Shown: piece by piece, positions 8,630 through 29,928 of the stretch
Position numbering within the stretch: the first letter of the stretch is position 1
Layout of the letters: every line of letters starts with the position of its first letter
NCBI GenBank assembly: GCA_039809905.1
Contig: JBDHVY010000001.1
Span: forward strand, 630,001-662,000
DNA from: Candidatus Babelota bacterium
GTDB taxonomy: Bacteria > Babelota > Babeliae > Babelales > Vermiphilaceae
Length of the DNA: 32,000 bases
Reading direction: 5' to 3'
Position numbers and translations under genes: made by a program
The notes under the pieces: generated by a model
What the model saw: the letters and a program-made list of their open reading frames with translations, nothing else
What the model was told of the DNA's origin: nothing
The model's database searches: none

Positions 8630-9214
8630 ATGAATAAGAAAATTATGATAGTATTCAGTTTAATGATTGTTTCACCAGCGCAGCTATTGTTCTCATATCA
8701 AAGTCGAGATATTCGCAGCGATTTAAAGTTTAAATATGAAAACAATCTACTGAATGAATGTCAGCTATCTGAAGAAGTTTTCGATTTTATTGACGTATTA
8801 GATCGTGATATCAATATTATGGAAGAGCATAAAGCGAATATAGAACGTTTAGTAGATAAGAATAAGGGCTATTTTAGACGAAGTGTTGTTCCTTTCTTAA
8901 AGACAGTGTGGACAACTAAGTTAGCTACTCTTTCAGTAGCAATGGCTTTTGTTGCTTCAATGCCTTCTGAAATGATTAATCAAATAGAAGTTGCATCAAC
9001 GAAAGCATTATTGACTGATCTGCAACCTATTGCGCCTTATTTATCAGGAGCTTTAGCTCTTTGGTTTCTTAAGAATTTTTGTTCCAGGTACGGATATTAT
9101 GGCAAGCTTGATGCAGATCTTATGAGGTTGAAAACAAAAATTAATCGCGACAAGCTGATTATTGCAAAACTTAAAGAGCTCAAATATAATTTTGTATCTC
9201 AAAATGGTATTTAA
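8630..9214 (+). CDS. Hypothetical exported protein: signal + helical region + bilobed hydrophobic domain + C-terminal coiled coil
   Basis: 194 aa. MNKKIMIVFSLMIVSPAQ signal-like N-terminus. Hydrophobic pair LATLSVAMAFVASM / IAPYLSGALALWFL. C-terminal KLDADLMRLKTKINRDKLIIAKLKELK. Confidence 0.55.
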   Translation: MNKKIMIVFSLMIVSPAQLLFSYQSRDIRSDLKFKYENNLLNECQLSEEVFDFIDVLDRDINIMEEHKANIERLVDKNKGYFRRSVVPFLKTVWTTKLATLSVAMAFVASMPSEMINQIEVASTKALLTDLQPIAPYLSGALALWFLKNFCSRYGYYGKLDADLMRLKTKINRDKLIIAKLKELKYNFVSQNGI

Positions 9215-9240: not shown

Positions 9241-9837
9241 ATGAACAAAAACATGATGATTTTGGCAAGTTTAGTTATCTGCAGCGTATATGGTACTGCA
9301 GTAAGTTTTAATCAAGAATACAAAGATATTCTCTATGCTCTTGATGAACTTGATCAAGATTTTGCCTCTGTTCCCATGATCACTGAAAACATTAATATGT
9401 TTATTGGTGTAGTTCACATGAATATGCAAATGACTGAAAAAAAGTTGCTTGCTGCTACAAAAGCGAGAAATAAAGCATTGCTTTACGCTGTTGCTGCTAC
9501 AGTGGGCAACGCTGGTGTTCTTGTGGTTGTAAATATGATTGGCAATAAGATTCGCTATTCAAATACAAGCTTAGTAAGCCATGCAATGCTCAGCAATATG
9601 GATGATTTATTTAGGAGCTTAGTGCGTAGTGCAGCTTCAGCGGTAACCAGCTTTTATGCGGTAGCTAGCATTTATGATGCTTTCAAAGCTTATAACACAT
9701 TGAAAGAATCATTAGAATTAGACGCCAAAATTATGGATAAATTACAAGATTTAAGAGAATCTTTGGCATATGCTGCAGCTGATGAAAATACAGGCTCAGT
9801 TGGCGACAATTTATTAAACAGCTCCGTGCAGGGCTAA
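9241..9837 (+). CDS. Hypothetical exported protein, architectural paralogue of 8630-9214
   Basis: 198 aa. MNKNMMILASLVICSVYG signal-like N-terminus. Hydrophobic pair ALLYAVAATVGNAGVLVVVNMIG / SAASAVTSFYAVASIY. C-terminal ELDAKIMDKLQDLRESL. Confidence 0.55.
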   Translation: MNKNMMILASLVICSVYGTAVSFNQEYKDILYALDELDQDFASVPMITENINMFIGVVHMNMQMTEKKLLAATKARNKALLYAVAATVGNAGVLVVVNMIGNKIRYSNTSLVSHAMLSNMDDLFRSLVRSAASAVTSFYAVASIYDAFKAYNTLKESLELDAKIMDKLQDLRESLAYAAADENTGSVGDNLLNSSVQG

Positions 9838-11821: not shown

Positions 11822-12679
11822 ATGAATATTAAAAAATTAGTTAGTATTACATTCTTGATTTCAGCAATACATATTCATGTTAATGCGATGACAGAACGTC
11901 AGGCTGATGCTCTTTCCATATTAACGTTAGTTGGGACGGGTTGTGTGTTCAAAGATACTGATCCATATATTCTGGGCTCGGCAGCAATGACTATGGCACT
12001 TATTAGCCATTGTTGTTTAGCGTCCTTTAGGCCTTCTGGTAAATTGTATGACGCAGCAAATTTATTGAATGGCGAAGGAAAAAGTGAATTAACGGAAACT
12101 TTTCTTGATACATATGAAAAATTTAGAGAAAGTGATACAACGAGCGAACAGCTTGAAAGATGGATTACTCGGCTTTACCCAAGTATTCCTGATAAAAACC
12201 CCTATCCTTTTGTAACGGCTATGCTTAGTCTTGATGCTTATAGTCCTAATGTGCTTAAGGCGCAAAAACTCATTCAATCGGTGCCAAATTTGATTAATAG
12301 TAAACAAGAACCTAATTTATGGAAAGAATATGATTATTTACAAAATAAAGCGGCAACAATTTGGAGTAATATTGGAGAAGCTCGTTCGATAATTTCTAAT
12401 ATGGAACAATACAAACAGCAGCTAGAGCTTTATCGACAATTTAAAGAAAAATCTGAAGAGCTTGCCTTACAGCGTAAGAATTTGGAGTTAGAAGAAAAAA
12501 GGGTATGTTTAGAAAAACAAGCTGCTGATATTAAAGCGCAAAAAGCAAAAGCTACATCTGCACAAGCGAGTGCTCTAAATAATATTTTCCGTTTAAAACT
12601 TGCTAAATGGTTGTTTACAAAATCAAATATTGCTTATTTTTCTATATTTTTGCTGTGTGGATATGTTTTAACGCAATAG
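11822..12679 (+). CDS. Hypothetical exported/membrane protein: signal + two TM + long coiled coil + C-terminal tail anchor
   Basis: 285 aa. Signal-like MNIKKLVSITFLISAIHIHVNA. Hydrophobic pair LSILTLVGTGCVF / ILGSAAMTMALISHCCLA. About 70 aa of heptad-like sequence (EQYKQQLELYRQFKEKSEELALQRKNLELEEKRVCLEKQAADIKAQKAKA). Terminal TM IAYFSIFLLCGYVL. Paralogue of 13531-14262. Confidence 0.6.
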   Translation: MNIKKLVSITFLISAIHIHVNAMTERQADALSILTLVGTGCVFKDTDPYILGSAAMTMALISHCCLASFRPSGKLYDAANLLNGEGKSELTETFLDTYEKFRESDTTSEQLERWITRLYPSIPDKNPYPFVTAMLSLDAYSPNVLKAQKLIQSVPNLINSKQEPNLWKEYDYLQNKAATIWSNIGEARSIISNMEQYKQQLELYRQFKEKSEELALQRKNLELEEKRVCLEKQAADIKAQKAKATSAQASALNNIFRLKLAKWLFTKSNIAYFSIFLLCGYVLTQ

Positions 12680-16061: not shown

Positions 16062-17186
16062 TTAGTTGGGGAAATTTTTGGTAGTTGCGCCATTCTCTAT
16101 CAACAATTGCATCAGTTGTTCATTTCCTTGTTGGGCTGCAATTAGTAGACTTTGGTCTAGTTCAGATTGGCTTGCTTTGCCGCTTTCTAGAATAGCATCG
16201 ATTGCTTCTTGATATTGTAATTTTACAGCAGTCTCCAGATGAGTAGTTCCTGGATTGTAGAAAAGAAGCAGACGAATCATTTCGATGTTTTTTCGTTTTA
16301 TTGATAATACGAGGGGTCTATTGTCTTCTTTTAGTATATCTTGGCGGGCTCCTTTTTTCATGAGAAGTATTGCAAGAGCTTTATCGCGGGAACGAACTGC
16401 ATTAGAGAAACTTTGATCCAATTCAGATTGACTTGCTTTGCCGCTTTGTAGAATAGCACTGATTGCTTCCTTAAATTGGAGATTCACTGCAGTTTCAAGA
16501 TATGTGGGACCTGAATTATAGGCAAGAAGGATATTAACCATTTTGATGTCTTTGCCTTTTATTGCTAATAATAAAGGCCTTCTGTCTTGTTTGATTGTAT
16601 CTAATTGAGCACCGTTTTTAAGTAAAAAATTTATTTTTTCATATGCTTCAGCTTTTTTAGTAAGCAATGCTGATAAAAGTATAGGACGATACTTTTCTCT
16701 GCGAGAATAAAAATTAACATCCGCCCCATGTTCTATAAGATCAGCAATAGTGCTTATAGATAATGTGTGAATGTTTTTGTGAAGATAGATAGAAGTCGAA
16801 ACATATCTTTTGAGAAAAGGAAGATTCATTGAATCTAATACGATTGATCTATACAAAATATCTTCTGTCACCGGTAGCCATTCATTTAAAAAAGCAACCG
16901 TGTTTTTGGGCAATGTTATTGCACGATGCCAATCTTTATTGAGAGATATCATCGCTCCGATAGCTTTTTCTTTTTTTTTTATTGGTTCATTGCCAATTTT
17001 CAACCAATTAATAAATTGATCTTTTAATATATCATTGGGAAGAAAAGGTTGTTGATCAATGTTGACTAAAATTCGGTGTTTTTTTGTGTGCGTATTGATA
17101 TTAAGATCGCGCAAACGCTTCATAGATTTAATATTACTGGAGATTGTTATAGATATAAAGGCTATAAATAAAGTTATTTTATTCAT
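16062..17186 (-). CDS. Ankyrin-repeat protein with N-terminal signal-like segment and F-box-like motif
   Basis: ANK-type repeats (LIEHGADVN; RPILLSALL...INFLLKNGAQLD; QSLLIAAQQGNEQLMQLLIENGA). F-box-like LPNDILKDQFINWL...AIGAMISLNKDWHRAI. Hydrophobic N-terminus MNKITLFIAFISITISS. Confidence 0.85.
   Translation of the reverse strand: MNKITLFIAFISITISSNIKSMKRLRDLNINTHTKKHRILVNIDQQPFLPNDILKDQFINWLKIGNEPIKKKEKAIGAMISLNKDWHRAITLPKNTVAFLNEWLPVTEDILYRSIVLDSMNLPFLKRYVSTSIYLHKNIHTLSISTIADLIEHGADVNFYSRREKYRPILLSALLTKKAEAYEKINFLLKNGAQLDTIKQDRRPLLLAIKGKDIKMVNILLAYNSGPTYLETAVNLQFKEAISAILQSGKASQSELDQSFSNAVRSRDKALAILLMKKGARQDILKEDNRPLVLSIKRKNIEMIRLLLFYNPGTTHLETAVKLQYQEAIDAILESGKASQSELDQSLLIAAQQGNEQLMQLLIENGATTKNFPN
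16095..16619 (-). repeat. Intragenic tandem duplication, about 261 nt (87 aa) x 2, within the ankyrin gene
   Basis: aa 203-260 (RPLLLAIKGKDIKMVNILLAYNSGPTYLETAVNLQFKEAISAILQSGKASQSELDQS) versus aa 290-347 (RPLVLSIKRKNIEMIRLLLFYNPGTTHLETAVKLQYQEAIDAILESGKASQSELDQS). At DNA level, ctttggtctagttcagattggcttgctttgccgctttctagaatagca at 16150 matches ctttgatccaattcagattgacttgctttgccgctttgtagaatagca at 16411. Confidence 0.85.
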
Positions 17187-20268: not shown

Positions 20269-20414
20269 AGTTAAATTAAGTAGAGGTTATAATGCTTTAT
20301 ATTTAATATAGATTAATTGTGCAATATTGGGTAGAAAAATGGTCAAAAATGTGTTAGATTCTGTTCAACATTGGGTAAATTGAAGTCAAATATATATTTT
20401 TAAGGATGGTTCTA

Positions 20415-21155
20415 ATGAAAAAAGCGTCTCTTTTGGTCTTAGCTCTTGTTGCACTATTGCCCGGCTGTTGCTGCCGTAAAAACCAAGAATCAGTAAATAA
20501 ACCAGTTCGTAGAAATAACGTTGAAAAATACATGCAAACGGATGTGGCCGTAGAAGAAGAAAATGTAGATGGAGACGAAGATGGTTCTCTTGATGAAGTA
20601 GACTTTAATATCGATCTTAGCGATGAAGATTATGAAGAGCTTTTAAAGGCGCTTAAAGATAATGTGGATGAAGATGTGGATGGCGATGGTCTAGGCTATA
20701 TAGCTGAAGAAGATTCTGATGAAGAAGATGCCGATGAAGAAGATTCCGAAGAGATGGCATTTAATTGGATAGATTCACAAACAGATGATGAGTTTAAAAA
20801 ACTATACTTCTCATTCAACCACTATGGTATTAGAGCTGACCAAAAAACAGCACTCGCATACGATATTGAGCAAGTTAAACAATTAGTTGCTGAAGCTGGT
20901 AATGTACAGCCAACTATTGTGATTGAAGGACATGCGTGTCAAGAAGGTACTCCTTCCTACAACTTAGCATTATCAGAAAAACGTGCGAAAAATGTAGCGG
21001 ATCTTTTTGTAGCAGCTGGTGTTGATCAACGCTTGATTAAAGTTGTTGGTCGTGGCCAAGAATGCCCAACTGTTATGAATGGTAAAGTGGTTAATGGATC
21101 TCGTGAAGATCGTGCGCCAAATCGCCGTGTTGAAGTTCGTGTAATTTATACATAA
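20415..21155 (+). CDS. OmpA/Pal-like peptidoglycan-associated lipoprotein with a long acidic linker
   Basis: MKKASLLVLALVALLPGC lipobox-like signal. AAGGA lies 8 nt upstream of ATG 20415 (the track start 20406 is an alternative). C-terminal OmpA_C motifs: IEGHACQEGTPSYNLALSEKRA and NRRVEV. Confidence 0.85.
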   Translation: MKKASLLVLALVALLPGCCCRKNQESVNKPVRRNNVEKYMQTDVAVEEENVDGDEDGSLDEVDFNIDLSDEDYEELLKALKDNVDEDVDGDGLGYIAEEDSDEEDADEEDSEEMAFNWIDSQTDDEFKKLYFSFNHYGIRADQKTALAYDIEQVKQLVAEAGNVQPTIVIEGHACQEGTPSYNLALSEKRAKNVADLFVAAGVDQRLIKVVGRGQECPTVMNGKVVNGSREDRAPNRRVEVRVIYT

Positions 21156-21222: not shown

Positions 21223-22358
21223 AGTATGTCTTTGACCAATTTCTTTAATTCCTGCGCAAAGTCCTTTTTATCCAATTTTTCAATCTTATTTTTATACGCT
21301 ATCAGTTTATCCTTGTTTTCCAATACACGTGCAATCAGTGGAGCAACCATATTGTGTTCTGTTATGGATGTACCAAAAAGATGCTTTTTTATAAAATGAT
21401 GGTTAAATTCTTCCCAAGAAATAGGGGTTGAGGTAGCATCAAGAAACAATGGAAGATTCATGTATAAGGCTTCGCAGATGCTTAACGTTCCAGATTTTGT
21501 GATCAAAAGATCAGATAATTGCATATAGTCGGCAATATTTTTGGTAAAGCCGATTATAAATAGATCTATGTGGTTTGGAACAAAAAGCTGGGCAAGGTCT
21601 TTTTTGCTTTTTTCATTTTTTCCAACGCAAACAATAAGATTAAATGATTGTTGTAGAGTAGTTAGTTGTGCTGTGTATTGCTTTATGTCGTCAGAACCGA
21701 GCGATCCCATCAGCAGCATAACGGTGGGCTTGTTACCATTAATCCTGTATTTCTGTTGAAGATCGTGTTTGTTTTTTAAAAGAAAGAAATCTCTTCGTAA
21801 TGGTGAACCGAGAATATGGATATGACTATCTGGTATGTGTGCGTTGCGTATTGGCTGCATGATATCAGGATCATTAAATGGCAAACATAAGTAAAACTGT
21901 TCATAGGCTAGATCAGCAATACCTATAATATAAGGAGTTACATCCAAATCAGTTGGCATGAGCACAAATGGAATATTAAGTTCCTGTGCTACATTAAGGA
22001 CCATATTGTTAATGATGGGGATAACTGAAATAATCAAATCTGGTTTTGTTGTAGTAAAGTAATTCCGTAATAATGCCATTATTTTTTCTTTTTGAGATTG
22101 GAGATACCATGTGCCAATGCCATAAATCCATTTCAGCAGCAGAACATGTTTTCCTGGTAATAAAGCATTATACATCTGTTCGCTTGAGTAGTTTTCAAAT
22201 GTTAAAAACTTGAAAGGATCAATAGAAAAAAGTATTTCGGTAAAAGCGTGACAGAGCTGAACATCATAATCAGCATGTAAATAGTCTTTCATAGCTTCAC
22301 TTGCAGCAGAATGTCCACCGCCACCAAAACTTGTTAAAATAATAATTTTCTTTTTCAT
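21210..22358 (-). CDS. MGDG-synthase / UgtP-like diacylglycerol glycosyltransferase (GT28-type)
   Basis: N-terminal KKIIILTSFGGGGHSAASEAMKDYL (MGDG_synth-type). C-terminal GT-B region TKSGTLSICEALYMNLPLFL. The start overlaps the upstream ORF stop (ATGA). Confidence 0.8.
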   Translation of the reverse strand: MKKKIIILTSFGGGGHSAASEAMKDYLHADYDVQLCHAFTEILFSIDPFKFLTFENYSSEQMYNALLPGKHVLLLKWIYGIGTWYLQSQKEKIMALLRNYFTTTKPDLIISVIPIINNMVLNVAQELNIPFVLMPTDLDVTPYIIGIADLAYEQFYLCLPFNDPDIMQPIRNAHIPDSHIHILGSPLRRDFFLLKNKHDLQQKYRINGNKPTVMLLMGSLGSDDIKQYTAQLTTLQQSFNLIVCVGKNEKSKKDLAQLFVPNHIDLFIIGFTKNIADYMQLSDLLITKSGTLSICEALYMNLPLFLDATSTPISWEEFNHHFIKKHLFGTSITEHNMVAPLIARVLENKDKLIAYKNKIEKLDKKDFAQELKKLVKDILKNR

Positions 22359-23110
22359 GGGTAATTTTTTAATATTGGTTTACAGGTGTTTATTTCCGCT
22401 TGATCATATAATCTTATTTTCTTATGTAATCGTTTATAAGGTTTATTAAGGAAAAAGAATCGTAATTTTTTTACAAAACAGGATCGCAGTTTTATATATT
22501 TTTTGGTTAGAACGCCCATTTTGGGATGAACCACACATGCTTTGACAGCGATATTTTTGACGTCCTTATTCTGTGCAATTGCTCTTTTGACAATATTCCA
22601 CTTTACAATGGCAATACGATCTTTTTCTTTATAAGAAGCTTGTGAAACTTGTTTTAAGGCATTATTAAAATTATATAATAAGTCATCTTTGTAACGATCA
22701 AATCTGACAATATAGGTAGCACTTTTTTTATTTTCATGTCTGGAATAACAAATAATATAGATAGTGTTATGTGCGCTATTGATGTCTATATATTTTTGTA
22801 CTTGTTCAATAGTAAGCCCGGTAGTTATGGGTAAAATTCCTTCTTCAAAAAATTCTCGTGCAGCGGTTATAAGAGGATGAGTTTCATTTTTTTCTTTGCC
22901 TCCTCCAAAGTCATCATATGTTCCACGAGAATTTCCTTCTGCTTCTCGAGCCAAAATAAGGTATTTTGTATTGTTATAGGTAAATACCGGAAGCACTGAT
23001 GCACTGGTAAAATTAAAGTCTGTTAAATATTCTTTTGCGTGAGTAATGCTCGATGCAAAGTATGATAGCAAAAAACCTAAGAGCATTGCTCGACAATTGA
23101 TTTTTAGCAT
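22355..23110 (-). CDS. Exported Nudix-like protein (degenerate Nudix box)
   Basis: Signal-like MLLGFLLSYFASSITHA. The stretch YLILAREAEGNSRGTYDDFGGGKEKNETHPLITAAREFFEEGIL resembles G-x5-E-x7-REUxEExGU but with altered spacing. Paralogue of 23132-24322. Confidence 0.5.
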   Translation of the reverse strand: MLKINCRAMLLGFLLSYFASSITHAKEYLTDFNFTSASVLPVFTYNNTKYLILAREAEGNSRGTYDDFGGGKEKNETHPLITAAREFFEEGILPITTGLTIEQVQKYIDINSAHNTIYIICYSRHENKKSATYIVRFDRYKDDLLYNFNNALKQVSQASYKEKDRIAIVKWNIVKRAIAQNKDVKNIAVKACVVHPKMGVLTKKYIKLRSCFVKKLRFFFLNKPYKRLHKKIRLYDQAEINTCKPILKNYP

Positions 23111-26710: not shown

Positions 26711-26786
26711 TGGAGCGAGAAACGGGACTTGAACCCGCGACCTTTGCCTTGGCAAGGCAACGCTCTACCAACTGAGCTATTCTCGC
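26711..26786 (-). tRNA. tRNA-Gly (anticodon GCC), CCA encoded
   Basis: The reverse complement reads GCGAGAA TA GCTC AGTTGGTA GAGC G TTGCC TTGCCAA GGCAA AGGTC GCGGG TTCAAGT CCCGT TTCTCGC T CCA. This is a full cloverleaf with GCC in the anticodon loop. Confidence 0.95.
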
Positions 26787-27537: not shown

Positions 27538-27557
27538 AAGGCATCTCTGGAAGATAT

Positions 27558-27588
27558 AAAAAAGCTCAGTGTTTTACTGAGCTTTTTT
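27558..27588. terminator. Bidirectional intrinsic terminator between convergent ruvA and ORF 27596-28291
   Basis: AAAAAAGCTCAGT (27558-27570), loop GTTTT, ACTGAGCTTTTTT (27576-27588). Confidence 0.75.
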
Positions 27589-27595
27589 AGTTTAA

Positions 27596-28291
27596 TTAAT
27601 TATTTTCATTATCATCTAATGGCATGCCGGCTCTGGCAAAAAGCTCCTGAAGTTTTTTTTGACAAGCAGGATTTCTGAATGCTCCTGGCATAAGTTCACA
27701 AGCAGCTTTCGCTGATGCAATATCTTGAAAAAGTGTTTGGCTTTCGAAAAACGCTCGTTCCGCATCTTTTGTTTTTGTAGAAGCTTCTTGGAAATCATTA
27801 GCTAGTTTTACTGTTTTATTGTTTTCATCTTGAAGTTGCTGACTCGTTGATTTGATATTTTGAATTTCTTTTTCTTCTTCTGTTAAAAGCCCTAATTTTT
27901 TTCTGAGTTCATCAACTCCAAATGCTACTCCGCGATCGATATACTTAAAGCCAAGAACTACGGTTTGTTCGGCAGCAGCTTTGGTTGCATAGCCTGTGAA
28001 TGTAGCACTATCTTCTTGTATCTTTTTTAAATCAGCATTGTACTGTGTCTTTGATTGCCAATATCTTTCTCGTGCTGCATTAAGCTCTTCAGCTGATATT
28101 CCTGGTCGCTGGCCTTGATTCTCTGGTGCAGCTGGTGGAGCAGCTGGTGGTCCCTCTCTTCGATCATTATCTTGAGCATCTTCTTGTTGTCCTTGAGCTT
28201 GATCTCCAGGCTTTTCTGGAGCATTCATTGAATGCAAAGATGTTGTTGAAAAAACGATAAATGCGGATAATAAAAACAATGTCTTATTCAT
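27596..28291 (-). CDS. Hypothetical exported protein with Pro/Ala/Gln-rich N-terminal region and helical C-terminal region
   Basis: 231 aa. Signal-like MNKTLFLLSAFIVFSTTSLHS. PPAAPPAAP repeat. The central region is similar to ORF 28293-28994 (KTQYN...DSATFTGYATKAAAEQ vs KTDQYN...FDATFIGTAEYAQRE). Confidence 0.55.
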   Translation of the reverse strand: MNKTLFLLSAFIVFSTTSLHSMNAPEKPGDQAQGQQEDAQDNDRREGPPAAPPAAPENQGQRPGISAEELNAARERYWQSKTQYNADLKKIQEDSATFTGYATKAAAEQTVVLGFKYIDRGVAFGVDELRKKLGLLTEEEKEIQNIKSTSQQLQDENNKTVKLANDFQEASTKTKDAERAFFESQTLFQDIASAKAACELMPGAFRNPACQKKLQELFARAGMPLDDNENN

Positions 28292-28292
28292 C

Positions 28293-28994
28293 TTATTTTT
28301 TTTCTTTATTAAGAAGTTTTCGTAGCTTTTCTAATTCTTGTTGGCTTTTTTGATCAGTTTTTGTTGTATGTTCTTGCAGATAGACTTGGTATTCAGCATG
28401 TACTTTTAGGCCTTCATATGCATTAGTCTGGTCCTTTTTACATTTTTCCAATTTTTTATTGAAAGATTTAGCTATTTTTTGTACTTCACCACTTACTGCA
28501 TCTTCTGGCATTAGTCTATCTGTAAGTAACGTAAATGCAGTTCCAATAATATTATTTATGAATTTTTTTAATAATTCTCGTTGAGCATATTCAGCTGTTC
28601 CTATGAATGTTGCATCAAAAGGAGAATATTCCTTCAAAAATTGTGACGTGTTGTTATATTGATCTGTTTTGGTAGTAAGATTAGTAAATTCATCTTCTTC
28701 TTTAGTTCTGTTTTGTGGTTTATTTCCTGTGTCATTATCAGTTAATTTTTTACATAATTCGTTCAAAATTGCGTTGTTTCCAGTTTTATCTGGATGTAAG
28801 AAAAGCATTGCTTTTTTATAATTCGCCCTATTTCCTTGTGTCAACTTTCGACCTTCTTCTATCAGATCATCCATATTGAAATTTTGACCAGCTTTTAGGT
28901 CGTCAATTTTTCTTCTAAACTCATCCATGGATAAAATATTAGAAACCGCAAGCATGCATAAGCATGACAATAACACATGTTTGTATATGATCAT
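28293..28994 (-). CDS. Hypothetical exported protein with a J-domain-like HPD motif
   Basis: 233 aa. Signal-like VLLSCLCMLAVSNILS. NYKKAMLFLHPDKTGNNAILNELCKKLTD aligns with the DnaJ stretch YKRLAMKYHPDRNQGD...AYEVLTD. Its start overlaps the upstream stop (ATGA), and the next gene starts 1 nt after it. Confidence 0.5.
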   Translation of the reverse strand: MIIYKHVLLSCLCMLAVSNILSMDEFRRKIDDLKAGQNFNMDDLIEEGRKLTQGNRANYKKAMLFLHPDKTGNNAILNELCKKLTDNDTGNKPQNRTKEEDEFTNLTTKTDQYNNTSQFLKEYSPFDATFIGTAEYAQRELLKKFINNIIGTAFTLLTDRLMPEDAVSGEVQKIAKSFNKKLEKCKKDQTNAYEGLKVHAEYQVYLQEHTTKTDQKSQQELEKLRKLLNKEKK

Positions 28995-29473
28995 TGTTCA
29001 TTGCCTTTCTTATGATTTTCTTTACGTATTTCTAACAATAGATTTCTAGAGTTACGGCTGATGTTTTCAGCCATTGCATCAAACTTCTTTTGTTGAACTG
29101 TTTCTTGCTCTATTTTTTTTTGTGTTTCTGCATGGCTTGCTTGGGCAGCTATCATTTCTTTGATTTTTTCTTCATTCTGCTCTTTTAAAAAGGCAATTTT
29201 TTCTGGCTCTTTTTTTCTCACCTTAGCTACTTGTAAAGCTATATTTTTTCCTGCTAAACCGACTGCGTATAATCCCATATCCTGTAACGGAAGATCTTTA
29301 TTAAGGTCAATTTGGGGAGGCAGTATTTCAAATTTGTTTACTGTTAGCTCACCAAGCTCATTCCAATTGTTGCTTTCATACGTAATATCAAAGCTGAAAA
29401 AAATACCACTTTCTATTGAAACAGAATGTATTAAAGTATAAAGAGCTATACCAATAAGAAACATTTTTTTCAT
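28991..29473 (-). CDS. Hypothetical exported protein with C-terminal charged coiled coil
   Basis: 160 aa. Signal-like MKKMFLIGIALYTLIHSVS. C-terminal KEQNEEKIKEMIAAQASHAETQKKIEQETVQQKK. Starts 2 nt after the ybeY stop. Confidence 0.5.
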   Translation of the reverse strand: MKKMFLIGIALYTLIHSVSIESGIFFSFDITYESNNWNELGELTVNKFEILPPQIDLNKDLPLQDMGLYAVGLAGKNIALQVAKVRKKEPEKIAFLKEQNEEKIKEMIAAQASHAETQKKIEQETVQQKKFDAMAENISRNSRNLLLEIRKENHKKGNEQ

Positions 29474-29475
29474 GA

Positions 29476-29928
29476 TTACTTATTCAATTGAGCTGCTAGC
29501 CATGCTTCTTTTTCTTTCATAATCTTATCGGTACTTTCCGTATAATGATCATAACCAAGAAGATGGCAAATGCCATGGCATAAAAGTGTGCGTAAATGTT
29601 CGTTGATTGTTTTATTTTCTTGTTCACACAACTCTTTAATGTATTCAAGAGAGATAATTAAATCGCCAACATTTTTATCGTCTTCAGTTTCTGCAACAAT
29701 TGTTTGACCGGCTTGTAAGTCCGGATGAAACGGGAATGATAAAATATCAGTTGGTTCATCTTTGCTACGAAAATCTCTGTTAAAACATTGAATTGCTTGA
29801 TTATCAGTTAACAAGATACCCAAATCAAAATCTTTATATCCCATTAAAGCAAGGATTTTTTGGGCATCGTTTTGAAATTGTTCCATATCAAGAGATGTAA
29901 TGCATTCTTCGTTATTTATATTAACCAT
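29476..29928 (-). CDS. ybeY: rRNA maturation endoribonuclease YbeY
   Basis: Zn motif HGICHLLGYDH. Typical size of 150 aa. Confidence 0.9.
   Translation of the reverse strand: MVNINNEECITSLDMEQFQNDAQKILALMGYKDFDLGILLTDNQAIQCFNRDFRSKDEPTDILSFPFHPDLQAGQTIVAETEDDKNVGDLIISLEYIKELCEQENKTINEHLRTLLCHGICHLLGYDHYTESTDKIMKEKEAWLAAQLNK

Follow-up and report, generated by a model that had tools for sequence, protein, structure and literature searches.

A trimmed, sub-threshold J-like domain in a predicted exported protein from a ybeY-linked gene trio of a Candidatus Babelota bacterium

Introduction

What could a protein that combines an export signal with the hallmark of an Hsp70 co-chaperone be doing in a bacterium? 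The question is raised by three small genes, here termed P1, P2 and P3, which directly follow ybeY on the minus strand of a 32,000-nucleotide stretch of a Candidatus Babelota genome (NCBI GenBank assembly GCA_039809905.1, contig JBDHVY010000001.1, positions 630,001 to 662,000 of the forward strand; hereafter the window, in which all coordinates are counted from the first letter). An initial annotation, read from the sequence alone, had taken all three products to be exported and had noticed in the middle one, P2, a His-Pro-Asp (HPD) motif resembling that of J domains. In a genome scan with YbeY, the nearest relatives of the window were Dependentiae, namely metagenome-assembled genomes filed under candidate division TM6 or under Candidatus Babeliales. 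Members of this phylum are widespread protist parasites with reduced genomes, and those in culture live inside protists; a limited literature search found no report of J-domain proteins among exported Dependentiae proteins. Judged by its sequence family, P2 is assigned here to the J-domain superfamily as a sub-threshold, trimmed member, and it is probably a lineage-specific, Sec-exported minimal J-domain protein that has two exported partners and targets host Hsp70. The overall case rests on a domain call below threshold combined with an inferred destination.

Results

The J-like domain of P2

P2 (233 residues; 28293–28994, minus strand) reads NYKKAMLFLHPDKTGNNAILNELCKKLTD, with HPDK at residues 67–70 (window 28796–28785), and is laid out as a signal peptide, a minimal J-like domain, a disordered linker and a series of long helices. 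The J-like region comprises residues 41–86 (28737–28874, minus strand), as delimited by profile comparison with PDB sequences and Pfam and by an AlphaFold2 (AF2) model. The family to which P2 belongs became visible in a single type of search: an exhaustive phmmer search of 1.84 billion representatives recovered 12 full-length relatives with 25–41% identity, and word-indexed searches with P2, with P3 or with an alignment of the positional orthologues returned the query itself only, or two proteins of the type found in one related locus (L002, see below). In the resulting 13-member alignment, H67 and D69 are the sole invariant columns; P68 is kept in 11 members and replaced by Ser in the other two, and the consensus around the motif is NYxKIxLLxHPDK..GN..L.EI.K.AN. 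HPDK is also found in all eight positional orthologues, so that the motif on which the initial reading depended is preserved among proteins that are otherwise less than 30% identical.

A profile of the P2 family, built without anchoring on the motif, gave as its best match among PDB sequences residues 21–62 of E. coli DnaJ (E = 1.5e-4), spanning helix II, the HPD loop and helix III; the top 18 matches are all J domains, as are most of the 46 matches listed. When the profile was anchored on the motif of the positional orthologues, DNAJA1 (1.3e-6) and Sis1 (3.5e-6) were matched, with nearly the whole J domain covered. Altogether, the J proteins retrieved by the family profiles include E. coli DnaJ, DNAJA1, Sis1, auxilin, T antigens, Sec63 and Tim14. 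In the hidden Markov model alignment with E. coli DnaJ 21–62, the stretch kknykkialllHPDk pairs with RKAYKRLAMKYHPDR; Y59-K60-K61 of P2 on helix II are aligned with Y25-K26-R27 of DnaJ, the conserved aromatic and basic residues, and C81 of P2 occupies the hydrophobic position of helix III held by F47 in DnaJ. The Pfam family matched most often is likewise DnaJ (PF00226), in 9 of 13 and 7 of 9 members, every one of them below the cut-off. By sequence comparison, the segment running from helix II through the HPD loop to helix III is thus well supported as homologous to J domains, in agreement with the first reading of the protein. The predicted domain is a trimmed one: helix II is basic, the helix III that follows the HPD loop is shortened, and a helix IV cannot be recognised.

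The AF2 model computed from the 13-sequence alignment has a mean predicted local distance difference test score (pLDDT) of 70.8, rising to about 80 for residues 21–80, and places helices at residues 41–52 and 56–66 (helix II), the HPDK loop at 67–70 and a further helix at 75–86 (helix III), followed by a disordered linker rich in Asn and Thr and by three long helices; a J fold of P2 is plausible. An earlier model computed from a three-sequence alignment (pLDDT 51) was discarded as too poor. The middle protein of the L002 type (L002:6902–7930; also protein P0023) contains two J-like repeats, of which the first has HPDK and the second has HSDK in L002 and HSDQ in P0023; HSDK is also present in the short-type relatives P0033 and P0034.

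Predicted export of the trio

The N-termini of P1, P2 and P3 all consist of one to three basic residues and a hydrophobic core, as judged from hydropathy and charge (best 12-residue Kyte-Doolittle means of 2.3–2.6), and leaders of this kind recur in the relatives, so that the signal-peptide-like starts noted at the outset are borne out for each of the three. The P2 leader covers residues 1–22 (MIIYKHVLLSCLCMLAVSNILS; 28929–28994, minus strand; from hydropathy and the family alignment) and is followed by an invariant Met23; it ends with S/A-M in every leader-bearing member. Three metagenomic relatives (P0030, P0033 and P0034) had been called without a leader, each of which has an in-frame ATG upstream that opens a typical leader; these apparent signal-peptide-less isoforms are gene-call artefacts, and since the upstream leaders could be recovered in all three, the leader is judged to be universal in the P2 family. 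The leader endings L-H-S and I-L-S, each with Met following, fit the –3/–1 rule of signal peptidase I. By hydropathy, window P2 has no second segment of transmembrane grade; the central hydrophobic block, considered as such a segment, is not of that grade in the window protein and is inconsistent among relatives. The LLSC of the leader was likewise rejected as a lipoprotein site, the Cys lying 11 residues from the start and not being conserved.

The basic N-terminal end predicts an N-in orientation, in which the J-like region would lie outside the cytoplasm with a cleaved and an uncleaved leader alike. Because of the Sec-type signal peptide, each of the three proteins would act outside the bacterial cytoplasm; P2 is predicted to lose its leader by cleavage and would then have to pass the outer membrane.

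The ending of the leaders in a small residue and Met is near-constant in the P2 and P3 families (ILS-M, LHS-M, VIC-M, LYT-M; in the window, Met23 of P2 at 28929–28931 and Met22 of P3 at 28226–28228). The same S/A/C-M type of ending is seen on an ankyrin open reading frame (ORF) of the window (16062–17186) and on ORFs 11822–12679 and 101–850. Counting the window and the related loci L002–L017, it is found on 18 of the 46 ORFs with a leader, whereas 7% of control 20-residue stretches show it (Fisher p ~1.6e-8); the 18 include many related P2 or P3 proteins and are thus not independent. The ending may reflect a preference of the cleavage site, mark the proteins for sorting or serve as an alternative start.

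Conservation and divergence of the locus

All loci for which sufficient flanking sequence was available share the gene order valS-ybeY-P1-P2-P3 and a convergent ruvA. In seven related genomes (L002–L008), and likewise in the metagenomic contigs L013, L014, L015/L016 and L017, three leader-bearing ORFs lie tightly packed between ybeY and the convergent ruvA, and the short contig L010 holds a partial P1 followed by P2 and P3. The trio is thus present at the same position in the related genomes, with strongly diverged sequences: identity to the window proteins is 21–37% across partial lengths for P1, P2 and P3, as compared with 89–92% for YbeY (62% in L008, the ybeY of which has in-frame stops), 76–78% for MnmE and 74–78% for RuvA. 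For the closest pair, L003/L006, the ratio of nonsynonymous to synonymous substitution rates (dN/dS) is 0.04–0.09 for ybeY, ruvA and mnmE, 0.24 for a Jag-like gene and 0.34–0.45 for the trio, corresponding to a protein-level evolution of the trio about 5–10 times that of ybeY, ruvA and mnmE. Since the values of the trio are below 1 and above 0.04–0.09, its genes are judged to be real and under selection, though fast-evolving. P1, P2 and P3 are lineage-specific.

At least two types of the cassette exist, a short one in the window, L008, L010 and L013–L017 and longer ones in L002–L007. The region alignable between the short and long types of P2 is the J motif only (33 columns, probability 83%), and homology outside this motif was not detectable. 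The cassette type does not follow the flanking genes, as seen in L008 (6400–8200): its MnmE is nearest to those of L003/L006 (85–86%, versus 78% to the window), and its P1-P2-P3 are of the short type of the window, with 28–37% identity in long alignments. The mismatch points to a polymorphism of long standing or to cassette exchange. The in-frame stops in valS, ybeY and ruvA of L008 represent assembly errors or gene decay.

P1 and P3

P1 (160 residues; 28991–29473, minus strand) begins with a leader and a short stretch of N-terminal sequence, continues with a helix of amphipathic or hydrophobic character (GLYAVGLAGKNIALQVAKV) and ends in a charged, helical-looking C-terminal tail. Positional orthologues with 21–37% identity are present in all related loci, and the helix reaches transmembrane grade in those of L003 and L006. 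P3 (231 residues; 27596–28291, minus strand) consists of a signal peptide (MNKTLFLLSAFIVFSTTSLHS, followed by Met), a low-complexity linker rich in Pro, Gln and Asp, and a C-terminal part in which ACELMPGAFRNPAC contains two Cys; relatives were found in L008, L010 and L013–L017. Across P3 proteins in general, the linker is variable in sequence and rich in Pro, Gln and Asn. Comparison of P1, P3 and their orthologues with Pfam, NCBIfam and PDB sequences gave nothing credible.

The 12-bp tandem repeat reported earlier in P3 is present as two copies of GCAGCTGGTGG(A/T) at 28128–28151 (plus strand; two exact matches, none expected by chance) and encodes PPAAPPAA within the linker. The proposal that P2 and P3 are diverged paralogues sharing a central block was abandoned, as BLASTP gave E = 1.7 for that block and hhalign aligned the leaders only, with a probability of 7%.

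The window P3 is a short form lacking the C-terminal hydrophobic hairpin of its long relatives, and that of L010 also stops before the hairpin. In the long forms (L002:7949–8683, L004:7599–8375, L005:3158–4144, L014:5360–6304 and L015:6657–7565), a conserved C-terminal hydrophobic hairpin, exemplified by APFIFALTTA...NRALVIATLAAIIYGYKLY, is accompanied by an acidic tail, and this hairpin could be a membrane anchor. Those of L014 and L015 have the central part in common with the window P3, with the hydrophobic tail added.

Transcription unit and window context

The first gene of the unit is ybeY, encoding the endoribonuclease YbeY (29476–29928, minus strand; Pfam PF02130, E = 1.1e-30). P1 starts after a 2-nt gap (TAA-tc-ATG), P2 overlaps P1 by ATGA (gaacaATGAtc), and P3 follows P2 after 1 nt (TAA-g-ATG); the tight packing described in the initial annotation is thereby confirmed, and it recurs in the related loci examined. 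A consensus scan found a hairpin with a 15-pair stem (four G-C pairs) and A and T runs on both flanks at 27557–27589, between the P3 stop and that of the convergent ruvA, which is probably a bidirectional intrinsic terminator ending the ybeY-P1-P2-P3 unit. Within the four genes, the terminator scan gave nothing credible, the one weak five-pair match lying in ybeY. On account of the tight junctions and the terminal hairpin, ybeY-P1-P2-P3 is predicted to be one transcription unit.

Upstream of ybeY on the minus strand lies valS, which extends past the edge of the window; the gene had seemed to be interrupted, a reading that was rejected on this ground. As had been noted, the linkage to ybeY replaces the usual context, neither phoH nor corC being found in the window, and it is probably a matter of gene packing in a reduced genome rather than of common function. 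On the minus strand beyond ruvA lie tRNA-Gly (GCC; 26711–26786, in the 310-nt spacer from the Jag-like gene to ruvA), the Jag-like gene and mnmE. The G+C content of the window is about 34%, and no other HPD-type ORFs were found in the window or in the locus flanks.

Leader-like N-termini are present in 14 of the 32 window ORFs of at least 100 residues (44%), most of which lack a Pfam family, and this fraction equals that given for the cultured relative Chromulinavorax destructans, in which signal peptides were reported on 44% of coding sequences and 78% of ankyrin proteins (PMC6561590). That study ascribes export to a Sec system and also describes putative outer-membrane vesicles (PMC6561590). 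An ankyrin-repeat protein of 374 residues encoded in the window (16062–17186, minus strand) has a leader-like N-terminus ending IKS-M, of the same kind as those of the trio, and is a typical example of the proteins that have been described in Dependentiae as putatively host-directed. A Pal-like OmpA-domain lipoprotein is encoded at 20406–21155; the organism therefore has an outer membrane. A leader-bearing ORF next to mnmE (window 22355–23110, minus strand; L014:9634–10329; L008:11325–12176) shares SASVLPV / SASVTPV and may represent another conserved exported family. The adjacent exported ORFs 8630–9214 and 9241–9837, considered as paralogues, were rejected as such.

Discussion

The results described above suggest that P2 is exported by its Sec leader, with the J-like region outside the bacterial cytoplasm, where it would recruit and activate host Hsp70 through the HPD loop. 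In such a setting, the only function established for this loop is docking on an Hsp70 so that ATP hydrolysis is triggered, and no Hsp70 or ATP supply is known from a bacterial periplasm; for these two reasons, together with the leader-bearing ankyrin protein encoded in the same window, host Hsp70 is regarded as the most likely target. The host partner may be cytosolic Hsc70, or BiP if the compartment of the bacterium is continuous with the endoplasmic reticulum (ER), and the site of recruitment would be the bacterial surface, vesicles or the vacuole. P1 and P3 would serve as co-exported partners or anchors; in its long forms, P3 has a C-terminal hydrophobic hairpin. We give about even chances to the proposal that exported P2 recruits host Hsp70 with P1 and P3 in these roles, in which delivery to the host, the choice and stimulation of host Hsp70, and any P1-P2-P3 complex are what we infer. 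The conservation of H and D as the only invariant residues of a fast-diverging protein argues that a canonical Hsp70 contact is being maintained. In favour of the host direction are also the fast evolution of the trio, in dN/dS and in identity relative to the flanking genes, which is typical of host-interaction genes, the occurrence of the same leader type on the ankyrin protein, which carries a eukaryote-directed domain, and the wealth of export signals reported for Chromulinavorax (PMC6561590) and matched by the window ORFs.

A more elaborate version, which we advance as a tentative proposal somewhat short of even chances, regards the trio as a Babeliales-specific device for host-chaperone capture. 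P2 would reach the host side without type III, IV or VI secretion, for instance carried by outer-membrane vesicles or set free in an ER-like vacuole. Held in place by P1 and P3, it would draw Hsc70 or BiP of the protist to the bacterial surface; the small-residue-Met leader ending common to P2, P3 and the ankyrin protein would be the sign of a separate sorting class, that of cargo directed to the host.

Several observations weigh against the favoured role of P2 as an exported J protein acting on host Hsp70. The Pfam DnaJ gathering cut-off of 27.8 bits is reached by no family member (best relative, 25.6; family consensus, 22.9), the whole window P2 has no Pfam DnaJ match at E ≤ 1, and its 70-residue region scores 13.7 bits (E = 0.07). 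The Pfam profile is matched at positions 10/18 to 51 of 63 only, so that the remark in the initial annotation that the domain looks shortened was correct: helix I is not alignable in P2 of the window type, helix IV is absent, and the match is confined to helix II, HPD and helix III. Foldseek with the moderate whole-chain model found no J domain in PDB or BFVD; a check of the domain against PF00226 and by structure prediction thus holds in the profile matches to J domains, whereas the Pfam score and the structure search do not bear it out. HSD stands in place of HPD in 2 of the 13 relatives and in the second repeat of the L002 type, where functionality may or may not persist. Furthermore, the signal peptides were judged heuristically, from hydropathy and charge alone, and the conserved linkage to ybeY has no functional explanation. 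The Pfam scores and the Foldseek result, together with a matched stretch of just about 35–45 residues and the mere 33 columns over which short- and long-type P2 align, speak for a fortuitous likeness to HPD, P2 then being a helical protein of an unrelated fold with no J domain. We consider such a coincidence very improbable, however, since the profile built without reference to the motif retrieves J domains as most of the 46 PDB matches listed, DnaJ is the Pfam family matched most often among the relatives, the HPD lies between two predicted helices as in J domains, Y-K-K of helix II and C81 of helix III (F47 in DnaJ) are in register with DnaJ, and the motif is kept in so divergent a family.

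If the J-like domain is accepted, its partner could also be sought within the bacterium. DnaK would be the simplest Hsp70 partner for P2, on which it might act in the cytoplasm either as a leaderless isoform starting at Met23 or from an inward-facing, uncleaved anchor, for which membrane-anchored bacterial J proteins such as DjlA provide a precedent; a Met does directly follow the leader in every leader-bearing relative, and gene callers picked it as the start on three independent contigs. However, the S/A/C-M ending is also found on unrelated exported proteins (P3 and the ankyrin protein), which makes it look like a feature of leaders rather than a start site, no obvious Shine-Dalgarno sequence precedes ATG23 of P2 (though such sequences are weak across the locus), the basic N-termini (MHKKK, MYKK, MIIYKH) predict an N-in, C-out orientation opposite to that of DjlA, and the full leader is conserved in all relatives, so that an action on DnaK appears unlikely. 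Slightly less unlikely, though still doubtful, is that the trio forms an envelope or periplasmic complex concerned with surface architecture, division or outer-membrane upkeep, in which the J-like motif would be a protein-binding surface that has been retained and works independently of Hsp70, or would be paired with a putative exported Hsp70 supplied with host ATP. Such a complex would accord with the leader-bearing and largely helical nature of all three proteins (from the model for P2, by inspection for P1 and P3), with hydrophobic segments, present in certain forms of P1 and P3, as potential anchors in bacterial membranes, with the fixed position among housekeeping genes in every genome examined, and with the replacement of HPD by HSD in some P2 members. 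On the other hand, envelope machinery is usually well conserved, whereas the trio is 21–37% identical where YbeY is at ~90%; the invariant H and D against a divergent background point to a canonical Hsp70 contact, no periplasmic Hsp70 is known in any bacterium, and the trio has no similarity to known envelope families in Pfam, NCBIfam or PDB sequences.

Export signals are borne by close to half of the Chromulinavorax proteome, with a known mechanism for almost none of these proteins, and the conserved HPD offers a concrete biochemical handle, the comparison of host with bacterial Hsp70, as one of few testable entries to the interaction of Dependentiae with their hosts. Chaperone hijacking is exemplified by HopI1 of Pseudomonas syringae and by the exported J proteins of Plasmodium; if host Hsp70 is indeed the target of P2, it would be extended to a new phylum and to Sec-dependent export, and P2 would illustrate how much of a J domain can be lost without loss of function. 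Should P2 work in the periplasm instead, the bacterium would have to run an extracytoplasmic Hsp70 cycle, a still more surprising outcome.

It is worth comparing P2 with the known J-domain systems. Like the co-chaperones of PF00226, it has a basic helix II that terminates in HPD(K/R), and hydrophobic positions are conserved in the helix that comes next; unlike them, it falls below the cut-off, with helix III shortened and helix IV absent. In contrast to DnaJ/Hsp40, it has a signal peptide and is without the G/F region, zinc finger and client-binding domain, and its C-terminal part consists of long predicted helices for which no relative was detected. In ERdj proteins and Sec63, acting with BiP, and in Pam18/Tim14, acting with mitochondrial Hsp70, a J domain behind a signal or anchor meets Hsp70 across a membrane, a layout similar to that of P2; however, those compartments hold their own Hsp70 and ATP, and no such partner is known for the bacterial periplasm. 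A pairing of P2 with P3 after the manner of Pam18 and Pam16 is unsupported, as the two are not detectably paralogous. E. coli DjlA resembles P2 in being a small bacterial protein with a single N-terminal hydrophobic segment and a J domain. DjlA is oriented N-out/C-in, with its C-terminal J domain facing the cytoplasm, whereas P2 has a basic N-terminus predicting N-in and a J-like region right after the leader. The precedent invoked at the outset, HopI1 of Pseudomonas syringae, the J domain of which binds and stimulates plant Hsp70 (PMC4617103), remains, along with the lumenal or tethered J proteins just named, among the closest parallels by mechanism, both being bacterial J-domain proteins and the action on host Hsp70, which is that of HopI1, being proposed for P2. 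In architecture and secretion route the parallel fails: HopI1 is a type III substrate combining central Pro/Gln-rich repeats and a C-terminal J domain in one chain, whereas P2 has a Sec-type leader, an N-proximal J-like region and a place in a three-gene operon in which the Pro/Gln-rich stretch belongs to the neighbouring P3. P2 therefore lies outside the architectures of both HopI1 and DjlA. In setting, P2 resembles the exported ankyrin and ORFan proteins of Chromulinavorax destructans, a member of the same phylum, in which Sec leaders are used heavily for eukaryote-type domains and exported ORFans are enriched (PMC6561590), as is also seen in the window.

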